This document shows positions 3,166 to 29,032 of a stretch of 32,000 bases of DNA, in pieces (position 1 is the stretch's first letter; every line of letters starts with the position of its first letter). Below the pieces are notes generated by a model that ran no database searches, had not been told where the DNA came from, and worked only from the letters and a program-made list of their open reading frames with translations. The stretch comes from Candidatus Saccharimonadota bacterium (GTDB taxonomy: Archaea > Nanohalarchaeota > Nanosalinia > Nanosalinales > Nanosalinaceae): NCBI RefSeq assembly GCF_047555085.1, contig NZ_CP180230.1, forward strand, positions 780,001-812,000. Direction: 5' to 3'. A program made the position numbers and the translations under genes.

Positions 3166-3191
3166 AGATAAAATAAGAGGATAGAGGATCT

Positions 3192-4445
3192 TTACTTTTC
3201 CTGCTCTTCAGGATTTTCCTCTTCATCTTCTACTTCTTTCTCGGCCTCTTTCTGTAGATTTGGTATTACATCTTCACCAGAGGCCTTCTTTGCGACATCG
3301 TTCGGATTTACGTCAGGAGTTATATCCTCATCCTCTTTCTTCATGTTCTGGATATCTTTCCCGACATCCGAGATGAACTCCCTTGTATCTGACTTGAGCT
3401 CGTAGAGTTCTTTCTCGTCGACTTCATCCATGCTCTTTTCTCTTACCTTGGAGATGATATCATCCCATTTCTGGAACATTTCCATGTGTTCTTCTCCGAA
3501 ATCAAGATTTTCTTCAACTACTTCTGGCAGATCATCTTTGTCCTGAGGCGGTTCTACACCGTTCGACTTGAGCGCTGCAACATTTGCCTTCAGGAAGTTC
3601 TTGTAGTCATCAACTATATCTTTGACTTTCTTCCTTGCACCGAGCTGTGAGACAAGCTTGTGCATCCTGCGGACAAAATCATCTGTCTTCTCCAGGTGCT
3701 CATCCAGGGCCTCTCCTGTGACTTCTTCAGGATTTTTCTCTCCTGTATCACCGAAGTCGTAGATCTCCCTTGCTTTCTCAACGTATTCTTCTTCAAGTAA
3801 ATCTTTCTCCACGAAAAGTTCCTCTAATGTATCAGGAACTTTCTCCTTGCCTGGAGGTGTCTTTCCTACAAGCATGATAGGTGCCTGTCCGGCGTTTGCC
3901 ATGACCTGTTCAAGCTTGTGCGGGATTGAAGACTTCATATTTTTCTCGGCCTTCTTGTAGCCGGTAGCGGCCAGTTTAAGTCTTTTCTTCACCGATTCCT
4001 GGGTGCCAGAGATCTTTCCTCTTTCAAGAAGCCTCTTAGCAGGCATAAACATACCTGTATCGTATACTGCTTCTCCGTTTCTCACTGCTTCTATAGCCAG
4101 AGGCTCCCCCTTTCTGAGAGAATCCCAGAACTCTGTAAGGAACGGGAAGTACTGAATAGTAATTCTTTCATCGACTTCATCTGCCAGAGAAGTTACCTTG
4201 CGTCTTATCTTTTTCTTGGCATCCTTCGGAACATCCTTCTTCAACTTCGTATCATCCAGAATAACAAGCGTATCTATATCGCTTTCTACACCATGTTCTC
4301 CCTGCGGGACACTTCCCCAGACAGCTACAACTTTTACCTTGTCACCAAGTTTTTCATTCAACTGTTTGGAGAACTCTTCAACCGACTCAAACCTTCTTTC
4401 CTGAGACTTTTCCCTCATCTTCTTCATCTTGTCCTTGGAGCTCAT
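3192..4445 (-). CDS. Pol-beta-type nucleotidyltransferase domain protein with long helical and acidic C-terminal extension
   Basis: Motif GSVPQGEHGVESDIDTLVILDD fits the minimal nucleotidyltransferase pattern (GS...DxD). I prefer the ATG at 4445 (MSSKDKMKK...) over the track's TTG at 4532, because GTTTATAA (4480-4487, minus sense) lies about 35 nt upstream of that ATG. Confidence 0.7.
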   Translation of the reverse strand: MSSKDKMKKMREKSQERRFESVEEFSKQLNEKLGDKVKVVAVWGSVPQGEHGVESDIDTLVILDDTKLKKDVPKDAKKKIRRKVTSLADEVDERITIQYFPFLTEFWDSLRKGEPLAIEAVRNGEAVYDTGMFMPAKRLLERGKISGTQESVKKRLKLAATGYKKAEKNMKSSIPHKLEQVMANAGQAPIMLVGKTPPGKEKVPDTLEELFVEKDLLEEEYVEKAREIYDFGDTGEKNPEEVTGEALDEHLEKTDDFVRRMHKLVSQLGARKKVKDIVDDYKNFLKANVAALKSNGVEPPQDKDDLPEVVEENLDFGEEHMEMFQKWDDIISKVREKSMDEVDEKELYELKSDTREFISDVGKDIQNMKKEDEDITPDVNPNDVAKKASGEDVIPNLQKEAEKEVEDEEENPEEQEK

Positions 4446-4530
4446 GGCAGATACACAGACAAGGATTTCCTGACGAGGCTTATAAACCTTAACAAATCCA
4501 TCTACAGAGCCTGAAACCTGATTTAACGGC

Positions 4531-4549
4531 AAAAGAAAAACTGAGGCCT
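4531..4549 (-). terminator. Putative archaeal oligo-T terminator after the 803-aa gene (minus sense TAGAGGCCTCAGTTTTTCTTTT)
   Basis: T-tract TTTTTCTTTT (4531-4540, minus sense) lies immediately downstream of the stop codon and an AGGCCT copy. The next gene has its own TATA-like element. Confidence 0.45.
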
Positions 4550-6961
4550 CTAACGATACTGCTCATTCAGCCATTCGCCAGGCCTTGTGCCGCTGTCAGT
4601 AGCTGCTCTGCCGGAGTAAGTATGATCAAAGCTTTCTGCCTCAAGGAGGCCTTGAAGAGGATCGAAAGCATGTTCCTCTATCTTCGTCCACTCCATGTTG
4701 GTGCTTGATTGATCTAGGCCGAAAAATCTTGCTATCAGGGCCTGTTTCCTGTTCTCGTACTCGCCGTCGTCGGGCACCTTCACCGGATCAAGATCGTCTG
4801 GCTCTACACCAAGCTCTATAAGATCCATAGCGATCCTTGTAGTGTAAAGCGTCTCAGCGTACTCTCCTCCGATCTCGAACATTACTATGCCTTCAGAGTC
4901 TTCACCGTCATTCCTGCAGAATCCTGCATCCACCATCATATACAGGTATCTGTAAAGCACTGTATCCCCTCTCATGAACGGTCCATGCCTGTGGATACCC
5001 TGCTGTTCAAATCCAGGCTTTGTAAGGTGGTAAGTCTTCAGTATATCAGCAAGAGGCTTCTCCTTGTCTATATCAAATCTTTCATCTTCAGCAAGAGCCT
5101 TCTCCTGATCAACAAGCTTCTGCAGCTCGACTTCAGGATCTACACCGAAACTGGCAGTATGCTCAAGGTCGACGGTGAACTTCAGAGGATTACCTCTGTA
5201 CTCTCCCTCCCATTCTTCACTCTCATTCCTGGCAGTAAGATTTACCGCCCTGCATGCCACTGCAATATCTTTAGGCCTCCATAATCGAAGCAAGTTCCCT
5301 GGATCACCGTACATGGCCTCTATATTTGTCTTCAGGCCATGCTTGTTCATCCACTGTATCCACGTCATGTTCTCTTCTGGCTCAAGGCCTGTATTTTTAT
5401 CTCCGTCGAACGTGTCTTCCCTCTGAGTGAACTGCCCCCATAGATAAGTTGCAGCGACAGCAGCAGTAATATCCAGTCTGAACTCTCTATCCGAATCCAG
5501 ACGCTCCTTCACTTCACTGTATTCGCTGAAGTCCAAATCATAATTATTCTCTACAATCGTCTCCCATATGAACTTAGGAGCCTCAAAGCTAGGATGATTC
5601 TCGTATTCTTTATCAGCAACTGTAAGCCAGGCAGGAATAATGTTGTAAAATACCGTCGATTCTTTCTCCATCTGTCTACCTATCTGCGTCCTGTCAATGA
5701 GGCGATGGAAAAGCTCAAGATATTTTTCTTCACCGCTCTCATCCGTATACTCCTCATAGGCCTTCTCATACCCTGAAAATACTTTTTTCGCCTTCTCCCT
5801 CATTGCATCAGTATCCGCCTCATCCGCTATATCCTGCTGCTGTATATCCAGTCTGTTAGTTAATGCAGAGACCTTTGCCTGGAAAGAAAGGCCTTTGTCA
5901 TTCCCATTGCCCGTCCAGAGCTTGTTCATCACAGAATTGATTGCCGAAAGAATCACCTTCCTGTCATTTTCAGAGAGGCCTTCATCATTCTGTATCTCGT
6001 AAACATTCTCGGCTAGCTGACGAACATTAGGCGTTCTACCAGCATATGCCTGAATAGCAGTTTCAAGCACCGCAACAGACTCAGGATCTTCTGTGTTAAC
6101 AGGCCTATGTGACAAGTCTACAGGCCTTTCAAGCTCTTTCTCCCCGATTTTCTCCCTGTAAATCAGAGATATTCCCTGATCTATGCCGGCTCCTGTCTCG
6201 ACAAGAGAGGCCTTGCCTCTTATGTCTCCTGAAAGCCTCTCAGCGTAAAGATCGTTGGCTACTTCGTCTCTGGCGTCACGCCATTCTTTTTCGAACCAGT
6301 CAGAGTACTCTCCGAACATTCCATAAAGCTGTATTGGCTCGATGTTTTCTGCGATAAGGTAGTCAAACAGTAGCTCCATGAACTCTTTATTTCTGTAGAT
6401 ATTAGGTTCCTTGTTATCTTTTACTTCCGTTATAGACTGTCCAAATGGATCAAGAGACTTGTCAGATGCAATCTGCTCTTCCAGAGGCGGTATCTGCTCT
6501 GTTGAAGCATGCATATTGACATAGCCTACGCTGAAGCCGTATTCATCTTCAACCTGTTTTTTGAAGCTTGCTAACTGATCCAGATATCTTGTAAAATATC
6601 TGTGGACAACATTATATCCTGCCTGAACCCCCTGTGCTCTTGTAGCATACGCTGCTCCGTATCCAAGATCTGTATTTCCGTGGAACGTGACATCTACTCC
6701 CAGCTGACCTACAACATTCAGTATATCCTCTCTGTCAACCTGAAAAGTTGCAGGATTCTGTAGAAGAACTTCAAGTACCTCTCCACCTTTCTGGGCCGTA
6801 CTTCCTATTCTCTGGGCTAGAGGGCCTGGCTCCTGCCCTACATCCATTCCTGTCGTGTTACCGACAAGATAGTTCATATCGTTGAACTTCGGGCCGTCTT
6901 CTTCATCCTCATTTTCCTTGAGTTTGTCCATAAAGTTCAGCAGGAAAGACATAGCGATCAC
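4550..6961 (-). CDS. Large (about 800 aa) protein; motif pattern suggests a xylose isomerase/endonuclease IV-like TIM-barrel metalloenzyme with a very large insertion
   Basis: Ordered motifs: VDVTFHGN, VGYVNMHAS, then a long insert, then TNIEAMYG, FTVDLEHTASFGVDPE, TYHLTKPG...GIHRHGPFMRGD and VMFEIGGE. This resembles the H/H/E/DxxH/H/H/E metal-ligand layout of the AP_endonuc_2-type barrel. Start is either GTG 6961 (GTGA overlap with the upstream stop) or ATG 6952. Confidence 0.75.
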   Translation of the reverse strand: MIAMSFLLNFMDKLKENEDEEDGPKFNDMNYLVGNTTGMDVGQEPGPLAQRIGSTAQKGGEVLEVLLQNPATFQVDREDILNVVGQLGVDVTFHGNTDLGYGAAYATRAQGVQAGYNVVHRYFTRYLDQLASFKKQVEDEYGFSVGYVNMHASTEQIPPLEEQIASDKSLDPFGQSITEVKDNKEPNIYRNKEFMELLFDYLIAENIEPIQLYGMFGEYSDWFEKEWRDARDEVANDLYAERLSGDIRGKASLVETGAGIDQGISLIYREKIGEKELERPVDLSHRPVNTEDPESVAVLETAIQAYAGRTPNVRQLAENVYEIQNDEGLSENDRKVILSAINSVMNKLWTGNGNDKGLSFQAKVSALTNRLDIQQQDIADEADTDAMREKAKKVFSGYEKAYEEYTDESGEEKYLELFHRLIDRTQIGRQMEKESTVFYNIIPAWLTVADKEYENHPSFEAPKFIWETIVENNYDLDFSEYSEVKERLDSDREFRLDITAAVAATYLWGQFTQREDTFDGDKNTGLEPEENMTWIQWMNKHGLKTNIEAMYGDPGNLLRLWRPKDIAVACRAVNLTARNESEEWEGEYRGNPLKFTVDLEHTASFGVDPEVELQKLVDQEKALAEDERFDIDKEKPLADILKTYHLTKPGFEQQGIHRHGPFMRGDTVLYRYLYMMVDAGFCRNDGEDSEGIVMFEIGGEYAETLYTTRIAMDLIELGVEPDDLDPVKVPDDGEYENRKQALIARFFGLDQSSTNMEWTKIEEHAFDPLQGLLEAESFDHTYSGRAATDSGTRPGEWLNEQYR

Positions 6962-8607
6962 TTCATAGTAAACAGGCCGAAGCCGATCTTCAGATCATAG
7001 TAGTACCTGAACTTCATCTCATGCTCCATATCAGCCCATGCTGTGCTTTCATCAACCAGATATTTATCCACCTGGCCTGTAAAGAGTTTAAGCTTCCTTT
7101 CTATACCCTGATAGAAATCAGGTCCGCCGCTTTCCGAATCCTCGTGGAATTCAGTGTCCAAGACTTCATCTAGGGCCTTTAACTGATCATCATTGAATAC
7201 AACATCCAGTTCATCCAGTCCGTCTTCCACCCTTCTGATACGTGAAGATACCTCCAGAGGGATTTGCTCGCCAATCTCTTCTTCTAGGGCCTCTCTCAGC
7301 TCCCTGACCGACATATCTTTTTCATGCCTGGCATCTTTCAGTTTCTTTCCTTTCTTGGTATCAATATTTCCTTTGTAGTCCTGAAGCTTCAGTTTCAAGT
7401 CTTTCTCAACTTCATCAATACGTTCCTTGAAAATATTCTCAAAGACAAACTTGTCGACAATCGCCGGATGCCAGAAAACCTTCGCTACAGAAGGCCCCTG
7501 CTTCGGATCAGTCGGCTCCTCACCACCGGCCAAGTTCGCATGCACCTGATGCAGAAAAATCACTCTGTAATGAGTGATCTCATCCTCATCATCCGTTACA
7601 ACTATGTCTTCTCCGGTATTCTTCAGGCCTCTGTAAATTATATATTCTCTTTCAGTAAACAGCGAGCTGTATCCCCGTAGCTGTATATGCCTCCGCATGT
7701 CAGAGGCCAGTTCCTCCTGAGACTTGTTGTTAATCATCTCCATATCCCGTACGTACGGCTCCAAATAATCCTCAGTCTCTTCTATAGCTCTCTCAATTCC
7801 TTTCAGCTCTCCTTTCAGCTCTTCAAGCTTCCTCTGAATCTCACTGCCGTACATGTCCTTCCATTTCTCGTACATCGCATACTTCTTCTTCAGAATCGCC
7901 TTAACGTTCGCTGGAAGATGAGCAAGCTTTCCATCCTCCAGATCCTCTTCATCCTTATCCTCGTACTTCTTTGCCTTATCCTCGGCAGACATCAGATCCT
8001 CCGTGGAATCCATCTCGTTGAAGTCAGCGACTATAGAAGGATACAGATTCTGATCACGCAGGAACTTAAGAGAAGCTCTATCGCCTCCCTGGCCTCCCGA
8101 AGCACCGGCTCCATCAACCAGTTCGACGAAGTCAGCCTTTATCCGGGTTTCGTTCCCTTCCTCGATGTCCTCTATGCGGGAACGGAGCTTCCTTATATCA
8201 TGTTCAAGCATATGCTTCTGTTTCAGAAGCTCCGAAAGATTACGCTTAGTCTCTTTTACACGTTGCTCCGCATTCTGATGCTGCTGCATCAACTGATTAT
8301 GCAACTGGCTGTCAGGAGAGACATAAACACTTTCCTCAACCTTTTCGGCAGTATAGTTAAGATCATCAGCGAACTTGTCAACAGAATTAATAACCATCCC
8401 ATAAGGGACTCCTCCACGTGTATTGGACTTTACCTTGATCGACTTCCACTGCTCTCCCATCAGACCTTTTATCGATCCTGGACCATCATCACTCCTTACA
8501 TCCTCCAAGGTCTCGATCTTGCCGCTGCGTACAGCTTTTTCCCACGGCGAACCGTTAGAGGTCTTGAAAACATATCCAAAACCCGGATGATCTTTTGAGT
8601 CTGACAC
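6958..8607 (-). CDS. 549-aa acidic coiled-coil protein, function unknown; first gene of a two-gene operon
   Basis: Long ORF with acidic composition. GTG start at 8607 with ATTTTAAG (8633-8640, minus sense) about 26 nt upstream. Central heptad-rich regions and a Gly-rich patch GAGASGGQGGD. Stop overlaps the start of the next gene. Confidence 0.78.
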   Translation of the reverse strand: MSDSKDHPGFGYVFKTSNGSPWEKAVRSGKIETLEDVRSDDGPGSIKGLMGEQWKSIKVKSNTRGGVPYGMVINSVDKFADDLNYTAEKVEESVYVSPDSQLHNQLMQQHQNAEQRVKETKRNLSELLKQKHMLEHDIRKLRSRIEDIEEGNETRIKADFVELVDGAGASGGQGGDRASLKFLRDQNLYPSIVADFNEMDSTEDLMSAEDKAKKYEDKDEEDLEDGKLAHLPANVKAILKKKYAMYEKWKDMYGSEIQRKLEELKGELKGIERAIEETEDYLEPYVRDMEMINNKSQEELASDMRRHIQLRGYSSLFTEREYIIYRGLKNTGEDIVVTDDEDEITHYRVIFLHQVHANLAGGEEPTDPKQGPSVAKVFWHPAIVDKFVFENIFKERIDEVEKDLKLKLQDYKGNIDTKKGKKLKDARHEKDMSVRELREALEEEIGEQIPLEVSSRIRRVEDGLDELDVVFNDDQLKALDEVLDTEFHEDSESGGPDFYQGIERKLKLFTGQVDKYLVDESTAWADMEHEMKFRYYYDLKIGFGLFTMK

Positions 8608-15941: not shown

Positions 15942-18059
15942 TCAGTGGAAGCCTTCAAAGGCCTCCTCAGCTTTCTCCTCCTCTTCAGCCATCTTATCTC
16001 GGAACCTGTCTACAGCAGCTTCAATCTTCTCCGAAAATGCTGAAACGGCAGGAATCTGAGGCAATTCAAGGCCTCTAGGAATCTGAAGATCAAGATCTCT
16101 TCTGTCGCTTGTATACAGGAATGCTCCTCCTGCACCGCCTATAATCACAAGGCCTAGCAACATCATCATCAATGTCTGTCGGAACTCGTTGGATTCATGC
16201 TGTTTTTTCACTTCTTCTACAGTTGAAGAAGCTGACTGATAGCTTGACTCAAGGCCTTCAACAACTGAAAGCGCTCTATGATACTCGCCGCTTTCCTGGA
16301 ACTGCTCAGCTCTCTCCACCATCTCCACGAATTCTGAAGTCCCGGATTCAAGAGAACTATCAAGCTCCCCGTTGATACCGGAACTTCGAAGGCTGGAAAT
16401 ATTTGACTCAATCTCCGCTAAGCGGGAAGAATAAGTCTCAATCCTGCTATCAACTTTCTCCCTCTGAGCGCTGTTAGCCTTCACAAGAATCTCCACCGAA
16501 TCAGAAGCCGAAGGACTATCAGACTCAAAAGTTGCATTCCAGAGGCCTGTCTGATTCTCGGAAGGAGAGATCTCGAACTCTGCATTAGCTGAATCACCTT
16601 CCTCTAGGCCTTCAACAGTCTTTGTGCCTTCGAAAAGCTGCGAAGAAGCCGTTACTTCAACAGATTCTACAAGAAGCTTCCCTGTATTCTCAACTACAAC
16701 ATCAATATTTCCTGTGCTTCCAGCCTCTACCGAAAAATTATCAGAGGCCTCCAGAGCAATCCTTGGTGTCGCATCAGGATGGTACTCGAAATCAATAGAT
16801 CTCACATCACTCCAGTGCCCCACACGATCACGCGCACGGACATAGACAGTCTGCTGAGTATCCTCACTGTCAAGCAAAGCAGTATCAACAGTGAAACGCC
16901 CTTCCCCATCGTACTCAACAGTATTTCCATCTCCTTCGCTTGTACCAGCGTAGAAGAAATACTCCAGCTCCTGAACTCCAGAAGCCGAGTCAGAGGCCTC
17001 GTAAGTAACATCAAAATCATCACTGTAAACTTTGTAATCCCTTGCTGCCTCAAAATTTTCAAGCACAGGATCAGAGGAATCAAAAGTATAAAATCTTTCA
17101 TCAGACTCCGCACAGTTACCTGCACGATCACAGGCCTCTACACTCACGTCTACTGTATCATCATCGACTTCCTCAGAAGGAATCTCACATGAGAAATCTT
17201 CCTCATCATCCCAGTCAGTTGTAGAAACTTCATCGCCGTCTACAAGACACTTCACCTGCACATCGCTCTCCTCCTCATCAATATTCCCTACAGTTACATC
17301 AAGGCCTACATCCCCGTTCAGATCAACATTATCGCCGTCAGCATCCTCAACAGTAAATTCAGGATCATCCGCCTGGAATTCATTATCGAAAGTTAAAGTT
17401 GGATTAGACTCTCCAGAGTTACCTACTTGATCAACCGCCTCAAGATTGAGAGAAATTTCGTACCCGATATTAAGATTATCAGTATCCAAGTCAAATTCTT
17501 TGAGACATCTACTTCCGGACGAACAGTCAACATCCTTTTCATCAAGAATATCTGTATTATCTGCATATGCAGATAGATCATCAATATTGCTGTATTCATC
17601 TTCAGCTAAAACAGTTATAGAAGGATTGTCACTGACAAAATCCAAATCACCATCTTGAAGAGAAACAGATGGAGGGCCCTGATCTTTTGTTAGATCAATC
17701 TCGGCTAGCTCAATCTCACTGGTACCGTCTGTGAGATTAGCTCTAATAGTATACTGCCCACTACCTTCATCACTCAACTGTGCTGTCCAGTAATTTCTAT
17801 CCCCCCCAGAGTAACTTTCTGGGGAACTATCTGTATCAAACTGCGTCCAGTCGTCCTGGCCTTGATCGCTCCAATAGAAAATCACTTCTGAACCTGTTCC
17901 TGACTCATGTGTTACGTTAAGAGTGTAATCAGAACCTATGACTGTATCAGCATTAGAAGGGGAATCCCAGTCAAGTGCTGCTGCGTTTCCGATTACTAGT
18001 GTTGTGAAAATTAGAGTGATTGCTACTTTGAGCGCTTTCTGGCCTTTGATACTTATCAC
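15942..18059 (-). CDS. Type-I membrane surface protein with several Ig-like/CARDB-like beta domains, coiled-coil stalk, C-terminal TM anchor and acidic cytoplasmic tail
   Basis: Signal-peptide-like N-terminus (KGQKALKVAITLIFTTLVIGNAAA). Recurrent motifs AVDQVGNSGES, ACDRAGNCAES and ARDRVGHWSDV. VVVENTGKLLVESVEV is CARDB-like. TM anchor LMMMLLGLVIIGGAGGAFLY. GTG start. Confidence 0.8.
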   Translation of the reverse strand: MISIKGQKALKVAITLIFTTLVIGNAAALDWDSPSNADTVIGSDYTLNVTHESGTGSEVIFYWSDQGQDDWTQFDTDSSPESYSGGDRNYWTAQLSDEGSGQYTIRANLTDGTSEIELAEIDLTKDQGPPSVSLQDGDLDFVSDNPSITVLAEDEYSNIDDLSAYADNTDILDEKDVDCSSGSRCLKEFDLDTDNLNIGYEISLNLEAVDQVGNSGESNPTLTFDNEFQADDPEFTVEDADGDNVDLNGDVGLDVTVGNIDEEESDVQVKCLVDGDEVSTTDWDDEEDFSCEIPSEEVDDDTVDVSVEACDRAGNCAESDERFYTFDSSDPVLENFEAARDYKVYSDDFDVTYEASDSASGVQELEYFFYAGTSEGDGNTVEYDGEGRFTVDTALLDSEDTQQTVYVRARDRVGHWSDVRSIDFEYHPDATPRIALEASDNFSVEAGSTGNIDVVVENTGKLLVESVEVTASSQLFEGTKTVEGLEEGDSANAEFEISPSENQTGLWNATFESDSPSASDSVEILVKANSAQREKVDSRIETYSSRLAEIESNISSLRSSGINGELDSSLESGTSEFVEMVERAEQFQESGEYHRALSVVEGLESSYQSASSTVEEVKKQHESNEFRQTLMMMLLGLVIIGGAGGAFLYTSDRRDLDLQIPRGLELPQIPAVSAFSEKIEAAVDRFRDKMAEEEEKAEEAFEGFH

Positions 18060-22957: not shown

Positions 22958-23111
22958 AAGTTCTTGATGGTCTGTGTTTGAATAAAAAACGCTCTGTAGA
23001 AAGAGAAAGGTTGGAGATGGCGGAGGGTTTCATAAAGTTTTACAGGTCATCTTGTTCATGCTCGGAAAGATATCTTCAGGATTATTGGACTGAGCAAAGG
23101 TGAATCAAATT

Positions 23112-23477
23112 ATGCAGATTACAGTTGGAACACAGGACGGCGAAACATTCCAGAAAGAAATTGAAGAAACATCTCAGCTTGTAGGTAAGAAAATCGGCGA
23201 GACTTTTGAAGGAGGAGTTCTAGGCCTTGATGGTTACAAGCTTGAAGTTACTGGCGGTAGCGATAAGCAGGGCTTCCCTATGAAGAAGTCAATGGAAGGT
23301 GCTGAGAGAAGAAAGGTTCTACTGAAAGAAGGTACAGGCATCCGTGAAGATGTTGACGGTGTAAGGAAGCGGAAATCTGTACGTGGAGATACTGTTTCGC
23401 AGGAGATCCAGCAGCTTAATACAAAAGTTGTTGAGGCAGGGGATAAACCCGTTGAAGAGCTTCTTGAAGAAGAATAA
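23112..23477 (+). CDS. rps6e: 30S ribosomal protein S6e
   Basis: GYKLEVTGGSDKQGFPMKKSMEGAERRKVLL is the S6e signature. ATG 23112 is preceded by AAGGTGA at 23097-23103; the track's GTG at 23100 lies inside that SD. Confidence 0.93.
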   Translation: MQITVGTQDGETFQKEIEETSQLVGKKIGETFEGGVLGLDGYKLEVTGGSDKQGFPMKKSMEGAERRKVLLKEGTGIREDVDGVRKRKSVRGDTVSQEIQQLNTKVVEAGDKPVEELLEEE

Positions 23478-23480
23478 ATC

Positions 23481-24674
23481 ATGAATAAAGAACTACCCGA
23501 AGTGAATGTAGGCCTTGTAGGGCACGTTGATCACGGAAAGACAACTCTTACCAGAGCTCTCTCCGGTAAATGGACTGATGAGCACAGCGAAGAACTGAAG
23601 AAAGGCATCACGATCAGGCTTGGATACGCTGACGTCACATACTACAGAGACGATGAAGGAAACCTGAACGTTGATGGAGACGGCGAGACAGTTCGTTCGC
23701 TTTCTCTTGTTGATGCTCCAGGCCACGAAACATTGATGGCTAACGTGCTTTCCGGTGCCGCAATCATGGACGGTGCTGTTCTAATTATTGCCGCTAACGA
23801 AGAGTGTCCTCAGCCACAGACGCGCGAACATCTGGCAGCTCTTGACATCATAGGAATAGAGAACATAGTTATTGTCCAGAACAAGATCGATCTCGTGGAC
23901 AAGGAGCAGGTACGTGAAAATTATAACGAGATAAAAGACTTTGTCGAAGGCACAGTAGCCGAAGACGCACCTATCATTCCTGTATCGGCACAGCACGAAA
24001 TCAATATAGATGCTCTTCTGGAGGCAGTTGATGAGGAAATCCCTACACCAGAAAGAGATCTGGAAGCCGATCCAAAGATGCTTGTCGCACGATCATTCGA
24101 TATCAACAAGCCAGGACAGCTACCTGAAGAAGTCAGCGGAGGAGTAGTTGGCGGAAGCCTCACACGTGGAAAACTTGAGCCCGAAGATGAAATAGAACTG
24201 AAACCAGGCCGCAAAGTCGGCGAGGAAAAATGGGAGACAGTCACAACAACTGTAGAAAATATAATCCACGGAAACGATATCGTGGACGAAGGAAGGCCTG
24301 GAGGCCTTCTAGGAGTCGAAACAAAGCTTGATCCATCGATGACGAAGTCCGATGGCCTTGAAGGAAACGTTTTAGGCCTTAAGGGGACTCTTCCAGATAC
24401 AACTTACAATATAGAGCTAGAGGCAGAGCTCATGGAAAGTCTTGTTGGATCTGAAGACGATAAAGAGATTGAGAACATCAAGGAGCACGAGCCTTTGATG
24501 ATCAACGTAGGTACAGGGAAGTCAGCAGGCTTTGTTACACAGGCAGGTAAGAACGTCAAGCTCGACTTAAAAGTGCCGATCTGCGCTGAGGAAGGCGATA
24601 GAATAGCTATTTCACGCCAGATAGGTTCTAGATGGCGCTTAATCGGTCACGGCAAGATTACAGGCGTTGAATGA
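23481..24674 (+). CDS. eif2g: Translation initiation factor aIF2 gamma subunit
   Basis: G motifs GHVDHGKTTL, DAPGHE and NKIDL, with domain II/III architecture. 397 aa. Confidence 0.96.
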   Translation: MNKELPEVNVGLVGHVDHGKTTLTRALSGKWTDEHSEELKKGITIRLGYADVTYYRDDEGNLNVDGDGETVRSLSLVDAPGHETLMANVLSGAAIMDGAVLIIAANEECPQPQTREHLAALDIIGIENIVIVQNKIDLVDKEQVRENYNEIKDFVEGTVAEDAPIIPVSAQHEINIDALLEAVDEEIPTPERDLEADPKMLVARSFDINKPGQLPEEVSGGVVGGSLTRGKLEPEDEIELKPGRKVGEEKWETVTTTVENIIHGNDIVDEGRPGGLLGVETKLDPSMTKSDGLEGNVLGLKGTLPDTTYNIELEAELMESLVGSEDDKEIENIKEHEPLMINVGTGKSAGFVTQAGKNVKLDLKVPICAEEGDRIAISRQIGSRWRLIGHGKITGVE

Positions 24675-24720
24675 AAAATAGTAGATTTTTAACTAACCAT
24701 AACAAGGTTGTATCTGTACA

Positions 24721-26292
24721 ATGTCACTCTCGACAGCACTCGCCGATCTCTCCGCAGGCCAGGGAGCATTATTTCGCACACTTGTAACACTTGGCCTTCT
24801 TGTAGGAGGACACATTCTGGTGAAAATCTTTGCAGTTATAGTAAGGAAAACCTGGATGCAGCGAGGAGAGGATCTGACAAAGAAAGCGATCCAGAAGCGT
24901 TACGATGCTGTAAAGAACATTACATACATACTTGATGCTGTAGTTATCGCCGCAGCACTTCTATACTTGAATACAGGCCTGACCACCACACTTACAGAAA
25001 AACTGACTTCAGGCCTTCCGGATATACTTTCCGTACTGCTGATAGGTATACTCGGGATTTTGCTTGTCAACTTTGTGACAAAGTTCGCAAGCGGATTCCT
25101 GAACCGTCTTGGAACAAGAAACTACCTGAGAGAGATAGGCCTATCACAGAACGCTACACGACTGCTAAGCCTTATAGTGAAGGGCTTCCTGTACCTTGTA
25201 GTTTTCCAGGTAGTGCTTGAACAACTGGGAATCGGAAACACGTTCCTTGACAAAGCGATAACTGCTTCAGCATATGCAGCAGTCTTCCTTGTAGCAGGCC
25301 TCGCATTCTGGGGATTCAAAGATCTAGCAAGAAACATGGCAGCAGGCCTCTATCTAAAGAACTCCAGACTTGTAAGGCCTGGAGAAAAAGTCTATCTCGA
25401 GGAAGAGAGCGGAGAAATCCGCGACGTTGATCTGTTCAGCACCGAAGTAGAGACTGACGGCGGATACCGGCTGCTGACACAGAACTCAAAGATCATGGAT
25501 GCCGATCTGAAGTTCAAAGATACACAGAGCGATATAGAAACACTTGAAGACGTGAAGAGACATTTCACAGCTCAGGATCCATCTTACTGTGGGCCTGCTT
25601 CAGCAGAGATGGCCTTAAGTATCTTTGGATACCGATACGGTCAGGAAACAATCGGAGAAATGTGTGATACAGAAGTAGGCGTTGGAACGATGCCTGACGA
25701 TCTTATCGAATCCATTGAAACTCTCACCGATGGAGAAGTTAAAGCTGCGTACGTTGAGTACGACAAGATCACGGATCTTGCGGACGAGTTCAAGATCTGG
25801 TTCAACGACGGTGCACTGATAATACCGAACTTTGCAAAGCCTGTGCTATTCCCTCAGGCTGATACAGCACACTACAGCTTGTGTGTCGGAGTTGAAGGCG
25901 AGGATCTTCTGATTGTTGATCCAAGTACTTCAACAGTATCAGGCGGAGTCTACTATGCAGATAGCTCTGAGATGCTGGAGGCTATGGGAGAGTTCGAGGG
26001 CAGAAGCAGAGGATATCTTGTGCTTGCTCCTGAAGATACAACAGCTTACTGGAGGATCAACAAAGGCCTGATCTACGCAGACAAGAGCTTCTACGATGAG
26101 ATCAGCAAGAACATGGAGCTTCAGCTCAGAAGGATTCTGCGTCAGGGAAGGATTCTGAAGAACGTTCTTCCAGAGGACTTGCAGTCTTACCTGGATAAAT
26201 GGAAGAAAGAGGAGAAAGTAGGAAGAGTATGGAAACCTGAGAGCAAGCGGAAAGAAGGTGAAGAAGATGGAACTACTGATTCTGGCGAATGA
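24721..26292 (+). CDS. Fusion protein: MscS-like mechanosensitive channel core plus C-terminal papain-fold (peptidase C39-like) cysteine peptidase domain
   Basis: N-terminal TM helices, then the MscS pore helix/beta-domain pattern FLVAGLAFWGFKDLARNMAAGLYLKNSRLVRPGEKVYLEEESGEIRDVDLFSTEVETDGGYRLLTQNSKIM. The C-terminal domain carries DPSYCGPASAEMAL (Cys nucleophile context) and TAHYSLCVGVEGEDLLIVDPS (His/Asp). Confidence 0.78.
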   Translation: MSLSTALADLSAGQGALFRTLVTLGLLVGGHILVKIFAVIVRKTWMQRGEDLTKKAIQKRYDAVKNITYILDAVVIAAALLYLNTGLTTTLTEKLTSGLPDILSVLLIGILGILLVNFVTKFASGFLNRLGTRNYLREIGLSQNATRLLSLIVKGFLYLVVFQVVLEQLGIGNTFLDKAITASAYAAVFLVAGLAFWGFKDLARNMAAGLYLKNSRLVRPGEKVYLEEESGEIRDVDLFSTEVETDGGYRLLTQNSKIMDADLKFKDTQSDIETLEDVKRHFTAQDPSYCGPASAEMALSIFGYRYGQETIGEMCDTEVGVGTMPDDLIESIETLTDGEVKAAYVEYDKITDLADEFKIWFNDGALIIPNFAKPVLFPQADTAHYSLCVGVEGEDLLIVDPSTSTVSGGVYYADSSEMLEAMGEFEGRSRGYLVLAPEDTTAYWRINKGLIYADKSFYDEISKNMELQLRRILRQGRILKNVLPEDLQSYLDKWKKEEKVGRVWKPESKRKEGEEDGTTDSGE

Positions 26293-27097
26293 CTTCGACA
26301 CACAGGAAAAAAGATTCAGCAACTACTTTGAAGAAGTAGAAAAAAAATCCCTGGCAGACGTCCTTATAGACACAGATAAAGATGAAAACGTCCTCGTGGA
26401 CGGAGAAAGGATAGAGGCCTGGGACGCAGTTTACATCGATCCGGAGCCAAAGGCCTTCAACTACCTGCGAGTGCTAGTCGAGGCCCTTGGACAGAAAGAT
26501 ATCTCATGCAACCTTGATCCATCTTCAATATTTATACTGGCCAAAAAACCTTACCTGTTCAGCGTAATGGCAGAAAGAGGAGTTTCAATACCTGACCAGG
26601 TGGCGATATCTACAGAGAAAGGCCTTACAGAGCTCGAGAAAGATGTAGATTTCCCTGTAGTGGCTAAAAAATATTCAAGCTTTGAGCTAGCCGAAGCAAA
26701 AATTTTCGAGGATTTCGACAATCTGAAATCTTTTGCAGAAATCTCTGAACACGGAAAGGACTTCATCATGATTCAGGAGTACAGTGATGAAGATATTTTT
26801 GACGTTCTGTACATAGACGGCAATTTGATATCTTTGAAGCTGGAGGAATCTCCGTGGGTGGCCTCTGAAAGCACTTCTGTTGCCAAAAAGTATCACAGCA
26901 TATCTACAGATCAGAAGGAGACTGTTGAAGATGCTGTAAGTTCTCTGGGCACCAGCATATGCCAGATCAGGATGAAAGGCAACAAAGTGATGGATATCGA
27001 CAGCAGCCCGGATCTTGAGGCCTTCAAGGAGAAAAGCGGGAAGAATATCTACGGAAGAATTTCCGATATGTTGAAGGAGGGAAACGAGGATGAATAG
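26267..27097 (+). CDS. Degenerate (probably catalytically inactive) ATP-grasp paralog of the downstream RimK-type ligase
   Basis: Colinear with the next gene: WDAVYI~FDAVYL, FPVVAKKYSS~YPAVIKIISG, IMIQEY~CLQEFI, VMDIDSSPD~IGEINASPG. It lacks the Gly-rich loop, the R-x-N...GG motif and the E-x-N motif. ATG 26267 is preceded by AAGGTGA at 26255-26261 and overlaps the upstream gene's end. Confidence 0.65.
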   Translation: MELLILANDFDTQEKRFSNYFEEVEKKSLADVLIDTDKDENVLVDGERIEAWDAVYIDPEPKAFNYLRVLVEALGQKDISCNLDPSSIFILAKKPYLFSVMAERGVSIPDQVAISTEKGLTELEKDVDFPVVAKKYSSFELAEAKIFEDFDNLKSFAEISEHGKDFIMIQEYSDEDIFDVLYIDGNLISLKLEESPWVASESTSVAKKYHSISTDQKETVEDAVSSLGTSICQIRMKGNKVMDIDSSPDLEAFKEKSGKNIYGRISDMLKEGNEDE

Positions 27098-27115: not shown

Positions 27116-28003
27116 ATGAAATGCGCTGTTATATACGGCAAGAAATCGGCCCAGCATCACCACTTCATAGAGGCAGGAAAAAAACATTTTGACAAGGTTC
27201 TTGGAGCCCCGCTGGAAGGTATAAGAACAGTATATACAGAAGAAGGCACGAAGCTGATGTATAATAATACTGATTTATGCGAGTTTGATGCAGTGTATCT
27301 GCGGCTTCTTGGAAACGATCTGATGTACGGAGAACATATTCCGGAAGTACTGAGGGACAACGAGGTGTACACACAGCTTGAATCTGACTCTCTCGCTATC
27401 GCCTCCAACAAGTTCCATATGATGAAGGTGCTTGCTGATGGAGGCCTTCCTGTTCCGAGATCAACTTATACTCTTTCAACACGTGAAACAGAGAGAGCCG
27501 GAGACATGCTCGGATACCCTGCTGTAATCAAAATAATATCCGGATACGGCGGGAAAGGAGTGATGAAGGCCGATTCAAGATCCGATATAGGGCCTATAAC
27601 AGATACTTTGACTCTTTTCGAGCAGGATATCTGCTTGCAGGAATTCATCGACAATCCCGGAGAAGATATACGAGTCCTTGTCGTAGGCGATGAAACGTAC
27701 GCCTACAAAAGGGTAGGCGGGGAAGAAGAGTTCCGTTCCAATATTTCTGCTGGAGGAGCGCGTGAAAAAATAGAGCCAAGCGAAGAGATGATAGAGGCCT
27801 CTATAGGAGCTGCAGAGCTCTGCGGACTTGACATAGCAGGTATAGATATCATAGAAGATGAAAGCGAAGAAGGAGGATTCTACATCGGCGAGATAAATGC
27901 CTCTCCTGGAGTAGAAGGTACAGGAGAAGTTATAGACGCCGATCTGGCGGATGAGTTCATGGCTTTCATAAAGAGAAAGACGCTGGAAGAGGACCAGCTA
28001 TAA
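27116..28003 (+). CDS. RimK-family ATP-grasp ligase (alpha-L-glutamate-ligase-like)
   Basis: Motifs VIKIISGYGGKGV, LQEFI, DIRVLVVGD, FRSNISAGG, AGIDII and IGEINASPG. AGGAGG at 27102-27107. Confidence 0.9.
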   Translation: MKCAVIYGKKSAQHHHFIEAGKKHFDKVLGAPLEGIRTVYTEEGTKLMYNNTDLCEFDAVYLRLLGNDLMYGEHIPEVLRDNEVYTQLESDSLAIASNKFHMMKVLADGGLPVPRSTYTLSTRETERAGDMLGYPAVIKIISGYGGKGVMKADSRSDIGPITDTLTLFEQDICLQEFIDNPGEDIRVLVVGDETYAYKRVGGEEEFRSNISAGGAREKIEPSEEMIEASIGAAELCGLDIAGIDIIEDESEEGGFYIGEINASPGVEGTGEVIDADLADEFMAFIKRKTLEEDQL

Positions 28004-29032
28004 TTCCTCAAAATCTCTTTCCACTGTCTTAACTGCTTCATCCAGCTGTTCTTCCTTGAAAGCGTTGTATGCCGGTATCCCGACATTGTCTTCTATAGTC
28101 TTCTTCCCTGCTGTTGTATCAGTGATAGGGCCTGAGATAAAGCTTATACGGTAGTCCATGTCGCCGAGAACTTCTTTAAGGCCGTAAGCACCCATAACAT
28201 CAAGTGATACAGCACATACGCTGAAAATAGATTTCTTAACGTCAAGATCTCTTATAACTTCCCTGACTCTGTAGTTACTGATCAGGCCTGCGCCGAACTC
28301 CACTACAACAAAATCTAGATCGTTTTCACGCCATGCATAGTTCATCAGGCCTTTAGCGGAAGATATAACTGTTTCAGGATCTTCTACAGTAGTCGGGATT
28401 CCTGCATCAACAAAGTCCAGTGAAACTTTTGATCCGGCATCGTACATACTCAGGCGATCTCTTTCACGGGCTGATCCTGTAAGCTTCAGAGATCCTACAT
28501 CGTAGTCCTCGCTCAGATTCTCGATAAGTCTTGTAGCAAGAGTTGTCTTACCTGCGTCCATCCTTGAAGCGACTACGGCAACCATTTTCACGTCTTCAGT
28601 TACTTCATCGGATCTTTCGATGCCGTAATGCTTCATATTTCTGATCTCATCACCGTTCCTCACATAACCAAGGAATTCGGCCTCACAGGGATCCTGAAGC
28701 TCTTTCGCTGAGCTCTCGTAATCTCCAAATATCCCTCCTGAACCCAGGAAGTAGACTTCGTCGCCTTTCTCAATTTTCTCCGGCACGTCACCTATGTATC
28801 CTTTAACGCCGGCCCTGTTACCGAAAGCTCCTACAACTATATCTCCCTCTTCAAGATCTACCAACTCTCCTCCTTCCAAGTCGAGCTCCCTGTAATTATC
28901 ATTTACATCCGTAATTCTTACGGCAACTACGTCGCCGCTTTGAGGCCTGTGGCCGCTGTACTCTATATTTACCTCTTCTCCAAGTTCAACGCGTTTGAGA
29001 CATGAGGCCTTGTAATCGTATTCTGTAGCCAT
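27998..29032 (-). CDS. Two-domain protein: N-terminal beta-rich domain plus C-terminal P-loop NTPase-like domain, function unknown
   Basis: Walker-A-like VAVVASRMDAGKTTLATRL and Walker-B-like DLDFVVVEFGAG. Convergent with the ATP-grasp gene, sharing the 6-nt CTATAA stop region. Confidence 0.72.
   Translation of the reverse strand: MATEYDYKASCLKRVELGEEVNIEYSGHRPQSGDVVAVRITDVNDNYRELDLEGGELVDLEEGDIVVGAFGNRAGVKGYIGDVPEKIEKGDEVYFLGSGGIFGDYESSAKELQDPCEAEFLGYVRNGDEIRNMKHYGIERSDEVTEDVKMVAVVASRMDAGKTTLATRLIENLSEDYDVGSLKLTGSARERDRLSMYDAGSKVSLDFVDAGIPTTVEDPETVISSAKGLMNYAWRENDLDFVVVEFGAGLISNYRVREVIRDLDVKKSIFSVCAVSLDVMGAYGLKEVLGDMDYRISFISGPITDTTAGKKTIEDNVGIPAYNAFKEEQLDEAVKTVERDFEEL

Follow-up and report, generated by a model that had tools for sequence, protein, structure and literature searches.

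The 32,000-nt stretch of DNA analyzed in this work (contig NZ_CP180230.1, positions 780,001 to 812,000; hereafter the window) is a housekeeping region from a Nanohaloarchaeon. Its GC content is about 45%, the encoded proteome is strongly acidic, and its genes include those for A-type ATPase subunits, S6e, eIF2-gamma, RpoE', S24e and Kae1. On its forward strand an open reading frame (ORF) of 523 codons encodes a protein in which the transmembrane (TM) core of an MscS-type mechanosensitive channel is fused to a C-terminal papain-fold domain resembling C39 peptidases and phytochelatin synthases. The fusion gene is followed on the same strand by two genes related to ATP-grasp ligases, grasp1 and grasp2. 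The closest homologues of the fusion protein carry the names Candidatus Nanosalina, Nanohalobium and Nanohalovita. The following parts can be distinguished in the fusion gene (residue numbers refer to its product):

24721-26292 (+): MscS-peptidase fusion ORF, uninterrupted, 523 residues plus stop, taken from the ORF list
24721-25242 (+): four N-terminal TM helices (residues 15-47, 54-86, 89-129 and 143-169), from the AlphaFold2 (AF2) model, MscS/YnaI alignment and loop charge counts
25243-25362 (+): pore-lining TM3 helix (residues 175-214), from the phmmer alignment to E. coli MscS
25363-25506 (+): MscS beta domain (residues 215-262), from PF00924, AF2 strands 223-254 and Foldseek
25507-25572 (+): linker (residues 263-284), including a conserved helix with the motif D271-x-x-T274-L275-E
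25573-26031 (+): papain-fold, C39/phytochelatin-synthase-like peptidase domain (residues 285-437), from PF13529, Foldseek and the alignment with Alr0975
25573-25575, 25588-25590, 25870-25872 and 25918-25920 (+): confirmed codons of the catalytic candidates Gln285, Cys290, His384 and Asp400
26032-26235 (+): conserved helical tail (residues 438-505), from conservation and AF2 helices 441-447, 463-477 and 485-497 (pLDDT 82-95)
26236-26289 (+): disordered acidic C-terminal end (residues 506-523), variable in sequence, with pLDDT below 50 for 498-523

Architecture of the fusion protein

When compared with the PDB by phmmer, residues 105-262 of the fusion protein aligned with residues 29-174 of E. 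coli MscS (TM1-TM3 and the beta domain) and residues 37-262 with a YnaI-MscS chimera, with E values between 3e-5 and 7e-4. The AF2 model (mean pLDDT 77) consists of five long helices, the four N-terminal ones, the last two of which are the equivalents of MscS TM1 and TM2, and the pore-lining one, followed by the beta strands; in Foldseek searches it matched MscS, YnaI, MSL1 and MSL10. In the window copy the beta domain (MS_channel_2nd, PF00924, residues 201-260) scores 15.7 bits against a cut-off of 20.2, and MS_channel_1st_1 likewise stays under its Pfam cut-off; both cut-offs are exceeded by most homologues. Within the pore helix Leu190 and Leu194 align with the hydrophobic seal of MscS, Gly198 with its kink and Asn205-Met-Ala-Ala-Gly209 with the TM3b hinge motif, the E. 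coli counterparts being, as we take them, Leu105/Leu109, Gly113 and Asn117-Leu-Ala-Ala-Gly121. Conservation is high in these columns among 121 homologues (L194 in 115, G209 in 117 and N205 in all of them). In the same set of homologues lysine and arginine residues number on average 7.6 in the loop 42-65 and 2.6 in the loop 128-144, and 0.1-0.4 at the N-terminus and in the loops 87-99 and 170-178, so the protein has five TM segments with the N-terminus outside and the C-terminus inside, the standard MscS orientation. The fusion subunit presumably assembles as a heptameric, tension-gated channel of MscS type.

The alpha/beta vestibule domain of MscS (PF21082, MS_channel_3rd) found no match in the fusion protein, nor in about 200 homologues listed. 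Between the beta domain and Gln285 there is room for only about 20 residues, so the vestibule domain is replaced and not merely followed by the new one; this linker has low pLDDT at 265-270 and forms a helix at 269-281 in the model. The domain that takes its place is modelled with pLDDT 85-95 over residues 287-437 and matches Peptidase_C39_2 (PF13529) over residues 285-401 with 24.6 bits (26.4 when the domain is taken alone), narrowly above the cut-off of 24. C39 proper (PF03412) reaches 13.7-16 bits against a cut-off of 22, and phytochelatin synthase (PF05023) gave no match in the window protein and faint or weak ones in some homologues. The best Foldseek matches were Nostoc Alr0975 (E 5e-7), a primitive phytochelatin synthase with papain-like gamma-Glu-Cys transpeptidase/hydrolase activity, the pseudomurein endoisopeptidase PeiR and the C39 domains of ComA (TM-score 0.78), PCAT1 and LahT. 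The domain profile matches Alr0975 weakly (E 0.014, 18% identity), and the Alr0975 motifs YCG, GH and (L/I)xDxS align with Cys290, His384 and Asp400, which are held in the motifs YCGPASAEMAL and AHYSLCVGVEGEDLLIVDP. Because the Gln-Cys-His-Asp (Q-C-H-D) set is intact, we infer that the domain of the window copy is an active cysteine peptidase or amidase located in the cytoplasm directly under the pore. The helical tail behind it, with W444, R445, Y452, Y458, K463, E466, R474, G476, W494 and W504 invariant, may serve in assembly or docking in place of the MscS C-terminus that the protein lacks.

An earlier note, made from the sequence of this stretch without database searches, had assigned an MscS architecture to residues about 1-265 and had proposed that the alpha/beta vestibule is replaced by a papain/C39-like domain with a Cys-His-Asp arrangement. 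Both assignments hold: the first is borne out by the phmmer match to E. coli MscS, by Foldseek and by the Pfam scores of homologues, and the second by PF13529, the high pLDDT, Foldseek, the Alr0975 alignment and the lack of PF21082. The structure and profile check that it had called for found a papain-like C-terminal domain with aligned Cys and His and an MscS-like N-terminal part.

Distribution of the family and its catalytic residues

More than 150 full-length homologues of the fusion, with 46-94% identity, were found, the full-length clusters at 50% identity number about 55, and the fusion occurs at 62 species-level genome loci, closed genomes among them, so it is neither a chance event nor an assembly artefact. 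The identical single-ORF layout in all these proteins and genomes contradicts an assembly chimera or a two-gene read-through, and the probability of such an artefact, or else of an extracellular cell-wall hydrolase, is practically nil. The hydrolase idea draws on the C39_2 and PeiR-type domains known in cell-wall lytic enzymes and was rejected, as the positive-inside rule and the MscS topology put the domain in the cytoplasm.

Below E 1e-10, an exhaustive search with a profile of the C-terminal domain returned 62 representatives of clusters at 50% identity. Their length is mostly 480-545 residues, the domain lying at about 250-500, and the shorter entries have 83-455 residues; all but one carry the domain at the C-terminus or are short fragments, so that these entries seem to constitute the fusion family. 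Beyond it the scores drop to small stand-alone C39/C39_2 proteins that match the catalytic core only and are the nearest non-fused relatives. The majority of the fusion clusters are non-acidic in sequence, with members named Woesearchaeota, Aenigmarchaeota and Nanoarchaeota, marine Tara samples included, so the fusion is a discrete DPANN family and not a halophile invention. Its members are labelled in databases as 'C39 family peptidase' or 'mechanosensitive ion channel domain-containing protein', and literature searches found no description of an MscS-peptidase architecture; a published report of a 'novel gene next to mscS' deals with another gene in another lineage. Some record titles are odd. 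L038 (JBLGBK010000004.1) is titled as a 'Colwellia polaris' metagenome-assembled genome and has the full Nanohaloarchaeal synteny block, and several contigs titled Aenigmatarchaeota bear an acidic fusion of Nanohaloarchaeal type with the downstream genes (L034-L036, L041, L043 and L057, the labels of which are in doubt).

The set Gln285-Cys290-His384-Asp400 is intact in 98 of the 121 close homologues and, at 25-45% identity, in 90 of 97 non-halophilic members (93%), which is good evidence that the ancestral domain was an enzyme; all deep Nanohaloarchaeal branches retain it as well. Near-invariant across DPANN are Asp400, Glu356, Trp360, Gly409 and Arg445, and also G221.

The ATP-grasp genes and other neighbours

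Around the fusion gene the following features were recognized in the window and, for genes missing there, at locus L012 of another Nanohaloarchaeon:

24685-24692 (+): ATTTTTAA, candidate archaeal TATA-like element about 30 nt 5' of the ATG, found by eye
26258-27097 (+): grasp1, degenerate ATP-grasp paralogue, 279 residues from GTG 26258 or 276 from ATG 26267
27116-28003 (+): grasp2, intact RimK-family ATP-grasp ligase, 295 residues (Pfam RimK, E 7.5e-32)
27998-29032 (-): P-loop protein of SIMIBI type, 344 residues, convergent with grasp2 (6-nt overlap)
L012:11230-12261 (+): GCS2/YbdK-family ligase, its start overlapping the grasp2 stop
L012:12258-13175 (-): YheC/D-like ATP-grasp gene, convergent with the GCS2 gene

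The product of grasp2 scores 144 bits with TIGR00768 (cut-off 143.4), and among PDB entries E. coli RimK 5zct is its best match (E 3e-28), Pseudomonas RimK also being among the best ones. Its residues K139, the G143-G148 loop, D184, R186, R207-S208-N209, D244, E259 and N261 show no variation among 26 sequences compared, and from these motifs we infer that it is active as a RimK-family ligase of alpha-L-glutamate type. With the equivalog models MptN, CofF and LysX it reaches 130.5, 61.8 and 104, the cut-offs being 350, 300 and 276, respectively. The start of grasp1 overlaps the 3' end of the fusion gene, and its product is homologous to the grasp2 family over the full length (hhalign probability 99.7%, E 1.5e-25, 258 columns). 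It gives only weak RimK matches, evolves faster and has replacements in the Gly-rich loop, at Arg186, in the Arg-Ser-Asn motif and in the Mg ligands, with Asp244 and Glu259/Asn261 among the positions changed; judged by its sequence, the most fitting description is that of a pseudo-ATP-grasp partner.

The order fusion-grasp1-grasp2 on one strand is kept in all of the about 58 Nanohaloarchaeal loci with downstream DNA, grasp2 being shifted by about 4 kb in L049, and it is unaffected by rearrangement of the upstream eIF2-gamma gene or by variation in the downstream slot. The same triad, degenerate grasp1 included, lies among unrelated neighbours on the non-halophilic contig L066 (51% GC). Because the triad is found there in a different context, the ligase linkage is functional and goes beyond clade synteny. 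On L066 a divergent third, RimK-like ATP-grasp gene and a gene of the FGase family (PF05013, N-formylglutamate amidohydrolase-like) were also noted (3182-4871, -), another hint at glutamate chemistry. In L068 the fusion is followed by grasp1, where the contig ends, and in L063 a fusion with a dead site is followed by grasp2. L065 and L067, of non-halophilic type by their non-acidic C-domains, have no ATP-grasp genes nearby; in both a tRNA_deacylase gene (PF04414; L065:7508-8311 and L067:3225-4094, both -) is convergent with the fusion gene and slightly overlaps its 3' end.

The slot after grasp2 is variable. The P-loop protein of the window has a conserved GKT P-loop, a beta-rich N-terminal region and only weak matches of MobB, CbiA and dethiobiotin-synthetase type; it is found at or near this slot in 27 of the 62 loci, in 19 of them by a near-full-length match, and whether it belongs to the module is uncertain. 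Elsewhere the slot holds a GCS2/YbdK carboxylate-amine ligase gene on the same strand (12 loci) and one to three YheC/D-like ATP-grasp genes (about 33 loci), with two or three tandem copies in L028, L032, L038, L039, L045, L054 and L060. Both the GCS2 and the YheC/D-like genes are absent from the clade of the window, where the P-loop protein occupies the slot.

The GCS2 genes bear on the idea that the domain works as a primitive enzyme of phytochelatin-synthase kind. In that case its substrate, for cleavage or transpeptidation, would be a small gamma-glutamyl peptide resembling glutathione or gamma-Glu-Cys and supplied by the carboxylate-amine and ATP-grasp ligases nearby, and the channel would release or sense this metabolite. 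Nostoc Alr0975, its glutathione acyl-enzyme included, is the best match by profile and by fold among solved structures, several homologues show the faint or weak PF05023 matches already mentioned, and grasp2 also matches ATP-grasp models of glutathione-synthetase type. We nevertheless consider the idea decidedly improbable: the window protein has no PF05023 match and its clade no GCS2 gene, the nearest relatives in the exhaustive profile search are C39 and C39_2 proteins and not phytochelatin synthases, and grasp2 is much nearer to RimK than to glutathione synthetase.

C39 peptidases are usually fused to exporters, and the fold of the domain is like that of the double-glycine peptidases ComA, PCAT1 and LahT (TM-scores 0.71-0.79). 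The fusion might then be a PCAT-like exporter working without ATP, in which the C39 domain would cut the double-glycine leader from a ribosomal peptide, perhaps modified by an ATP-grasp enzyme, and the product would leave via the MscS pore. Loci for ATP-grasp-modified, ribosomally synthesized peptides often have C39-containing ATP-binding cassette (ABC) transporters (PMC8939145). Such an exporter is nonetheless very unlikely, given that PF03412 stays under its cut-off, that grasp2 belongs to the RimK family and not to the graspetide ligases, that the catalytic residues are frequently lost and that the cluster, set among housekeeping genes, contains no conserved precursor-like small gene, no systematic search for double-glycine-leader genes having been made. 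The MscS pore, moreover, is narrow and unenergized.

Directly 5' of the cluster lies the eIF2-gamma gene (23481-24674, +), and ATTTTTAA, possibly a TATA-like promoter element, is situated in the 46-nt gap between its stop codon and the fusion gene. A eukaryotic ATP-grasp protein, CDC123, is a binding partner of eIF2-gamma (PMC4431377). A CDC123-like action of grasp1 on eIF2-gamma was considered and rejected, as no D123 match was obtained and the adjacency is broken in a deep clade that keeps the triad (L035, L036, L041 and L043); the adjacency is probably a coincidence. Two genes 5' of the fusion, S6e (23100-23477, +) has an acidic, Glu-rich end (…VEELLEEE) that recalls the Glu-Glu end of bacterial S6 extended by RimK, and 28 of 43 orthologues end in Glu. 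As a ligase substrate the S6e tail is a lead only, acidic tails being common in halophile proteins and S6e being unrelated to bacterial S6. The acidic tail of the channel itself was also considered as a RimK substrate and was rejected, since its last residue varies (N in 21, E in 15, then K, S, D, R, Q and others).

Further from the cluster, two overlapping large ORFs of 803 and 549 codons (4550-6961 and 6958-8607, both -) have no Pfam match at E <= 1e-4. A very acidic protein of 705 residues (15942-18059, -), with weak Ig-like (Big_13) matches, a coiled coil and a C-terminal hydrophobic segment, may be a symbiont surface or adhesion protein. No tRNA genes were found in the 32,000-nt window.

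Possible function and comparison with known systems

The reading that we tentatively prefer, while according it somewhat less than even credence, is that of a channel gated by tension whose cytoplasmic cysteine peptidase shortens the glutamyl peptides or tails produced by the ligase. In Nanohaloarchaeota the fusion gene heads a translationally overlapping cluster with a putatively inactive grasp1 and a putatively active grasp2; grasp2 would join glutamate into a peptide or onto a protein as a tail, and the peptidase anchored at the channel would trim or hydrolyse this product, the two forming a ligase/hydrolase pair as in RimK/RimB. MscS-type channels pass glutamate. With a hydrolase at the pore mouth, the conversion of polymer to monomer might be coupled to the release of small anions such as glutamate under tension; alternatively, gating movements might control access to the active site. 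To the demonstrated architecture, topology, conservation and gene linkage such a scheme would add catalysis, a glutamyl substrate, an oligomeric state, tension gating and a coupling of gating with hydrolysis.

Several observations weigh against this scheme. Of the substrates considered, the S6e tail is no more than a lead and the tail of the channel ends in variable residues, and the best match among solved structures is an enzyme that processes gamma-glutamylcysteine, not a poly-alpha-Glu hydrolase. With the S6--L-glutamate ligase equivalog (PRK10446) grasp2 scores 117.5 against 331, so far under the cut-off that its specificity for glutamate is only putative. The AF2 model is of a monomer only (pTM 0.49) and does not place the active sites relative to the pore. 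No adjacent ATP-grasp gene is present in seven of ten non-halophilic members sampled, which means that the fusion protein can act alone. Above all, the full Q-C-H-D set is found in only 37 of the 62 Nanohaloarchaeal species-level loci, Cys and/or His being replaced in about 23 of them (about 40%), with patterns such as E-S-E-D, E-T-Q-D, Q-C-N-D and G-Q-S-D, and in a neighbour-joining tree the losses fall into at least four separate clades. Every Nanohaloarchaeal locus with a dead site keeps the domain and the tail, and also both grasp1 and grasp2, the latter intact. It follows that the domain has a further role that does not depend on catalysis, and in the lineages concerned the ligases operate without this peptidase activity.

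These losses have led us to consider that the papain-like domain stands in for the vestibule mainly in a structural or regulatory capacity, as a ring that binds ligands or partners and sets gating, selectivity or ATP-grasp docking, with catalysis ancestral and dispensable; the system would then be a peptide- or ligase-regulated channel instead of a peptidase system. The active site was lost repeatedly and independently, in several divergent representatives as well as in Nanohaloarchaeota, and the near-invariant residues G221, E356, W360, D400, G409 and R445 are counted here as lying outside the catalytic set. There is also a precedent in RloB, a membrane protein whose papain-like domain is inactive and which partners a RimK-like ligase. 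On the other hand, the full set in 93% of non-halophilic members and in 60% of Nanohaloarchaeal species, that of the window included, suggests that catalysis is under selection in those lineages that retain it. We regard a chiefly structural domain, the main rival of the peptidase reading, as rather doubtful, and structural and peptidase roles are compatible with each other.

The peptidase reading has a bolder form, a prokaryotic 'chanzyme' in which seven peptidase domains would make up the cytoplasmic chamber of a tension-gated MscS pore. Tension would switch hydrolysis on or off, as in a mechanosensitive signalling protease, or a self-compartmentalized chamber would turn a polyanionic peptide made by the ligase, such as oligo-glutamate, into permeant monomers to be vented through the pore. 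The latter version would amount to a safety valve with an integral osmotic buffer of polymer and monomer, conserved across DPANN archaea. Both versions we consider unlikely.

The functional proposals of the earlier note fare unevenly against these results. The survey of the architecture and its neighbours that it had suggested yielded the 62 Nanohaloarchaeal loci, the DPANN-wide family and the ligase linkage described above. Of the 'two ATP-grasp peptide ligases' that it had named, grasp2 is intact and grasp1 is degenerate, its motifs being replaced. The linkage to the ligases is real and stronger than could be seen from the window alone, and a coupling of membrane tension to turnover or export of a ligase-made peptide is a hypothesis; turnover cannot be the sole role conserved, the catalytic set having been lost in about 23 of 62 species with the domain and the grasp genes kept. 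Oligo-glutamate is a reasonable candidate product, grasp2 being RimK-like. The rationale built on K+ and glutamate as salt-in osmolytes does not apply generally, because the family is DPANN-wide, mostly non-halophilic and usually without adjacent ligases. The proximity of trkAH, which had been offered as evidence, has to be given up: these genes are on the opposite strand, behind two translation genes, and are absent from deep-branching loci that keep the triad, so their proximity is plain synteny.

Both halves of the protein come from known superfamilies, and their domains are already tagged in databases. What appears undescribed is the combination: an enzyme domain in place of the MscS cage, its conservation across DPANN and the fixed pairing with an active and an inactive RimK-like protein. 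Solute filtering and the sensing of crowding are ascribed to the alpha/beta cage of MscS, and its replacement by an enzyme domain would show that the cage is exchangeable and would provide the first channel-enzyme hybrid of MscS type. DPANN archaea have genomes of about 1 Mb and depend on hosts. A gene that Nanohaloarchaeota, Woesearchaeota and Aenigmarchaeota have all retained probably plays an important part in the physiology of their envelope, in their osmotic physiology or in exchanging metabolites. The pairing with a ligase and a pseudo-ligase offers a tractable entry to protein and peptide glutamylation in archaea, an essentially unexplored subject, and the recurrent loss of the active site is a natural experiment that separates catalytic from structural roles.

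With E. coli MscS and YnaI (TC 1.A.23) the fusion protein shares TM1-TM3 and the beta domain, equivalents of the Leu seal, the N-x-A-A-G hinge and the N-out/C-in orientation, and with YnaI also the five TM helices. It differs from them in having a papain-fold domain and a helical tail instead of the alpha/beta domain and the C-terminal beta-barrel of the cage, and from E. coli MscS in a three-residue insertion in TM3b. MscS-like channels with additional sensor domains include bCNG, which binds cyclic nucleotides, the EF-hand proteins Msy1/2 and MscK, and in eukaryotes the 'chanzymes' TRPM7 and TRPM2 combine channel and enzyme; MscCG, a glutamate exporter, ties MscS-type channels to glutamate efflux. 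To our knowledge the known MscS relatives that add domains retain the alpha/beta vestibule, and an enzyme domain in its place has not been reported.

Like ComA, PCAT1 and LahT, the fusion has a papain fold with Gln, Cys, His and Asp and a cytoplasmic peptidase joined to a membrane conduit, and the His-Asp spacing of 16 residues equals what we take to be that of ComA. It differs from them in that the domain is C-terminal on a passive MscS channel, not N-terminal on an ABC pump, there is no ABC transporter gene in the fusion cluster and no substrates with a double-glycine leader are evident, genes for such leaders not having been searched for systematically. With Alr0975, the best solved match, it has the aligned Cys, His and Asp in common, and Alr0975 acts on a ligase-made gamma-glutamyl peptide; the latter is a soluble protein, whereas the fusion is membrane-bound, 18% identical and without a PF05023 match.

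The RimABK and RloABC systems resemble the module in that a RimK-like ATP-grasp ligase is encoded beside a peptidase. In RimK/RimB the peptidase RimB removes the glutamates added by RimK. Pseudomonas RloABC, which is needed for hypo-osmotic tolerance, comprises a RimK-like ligase, peptidases that cleave polyGlu and the membrane protein RloB, which carries an inactive papain-like (transglutaminase) domain in the periplasm on a 7-TM protein that is not an ion channel; its authors raise glutamate/poly-glutamate homeostasis as a possibility (PMC11957051). The peptidase of these systems is a retropepsin (PF05618), secreted in Rlo, that of the fusion has a papain fold, and a pseudo-ATP-grasp partner occurs only in the fusion module. 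The likeness is one of function and organization, by analogy, and not a homology of whole modules.

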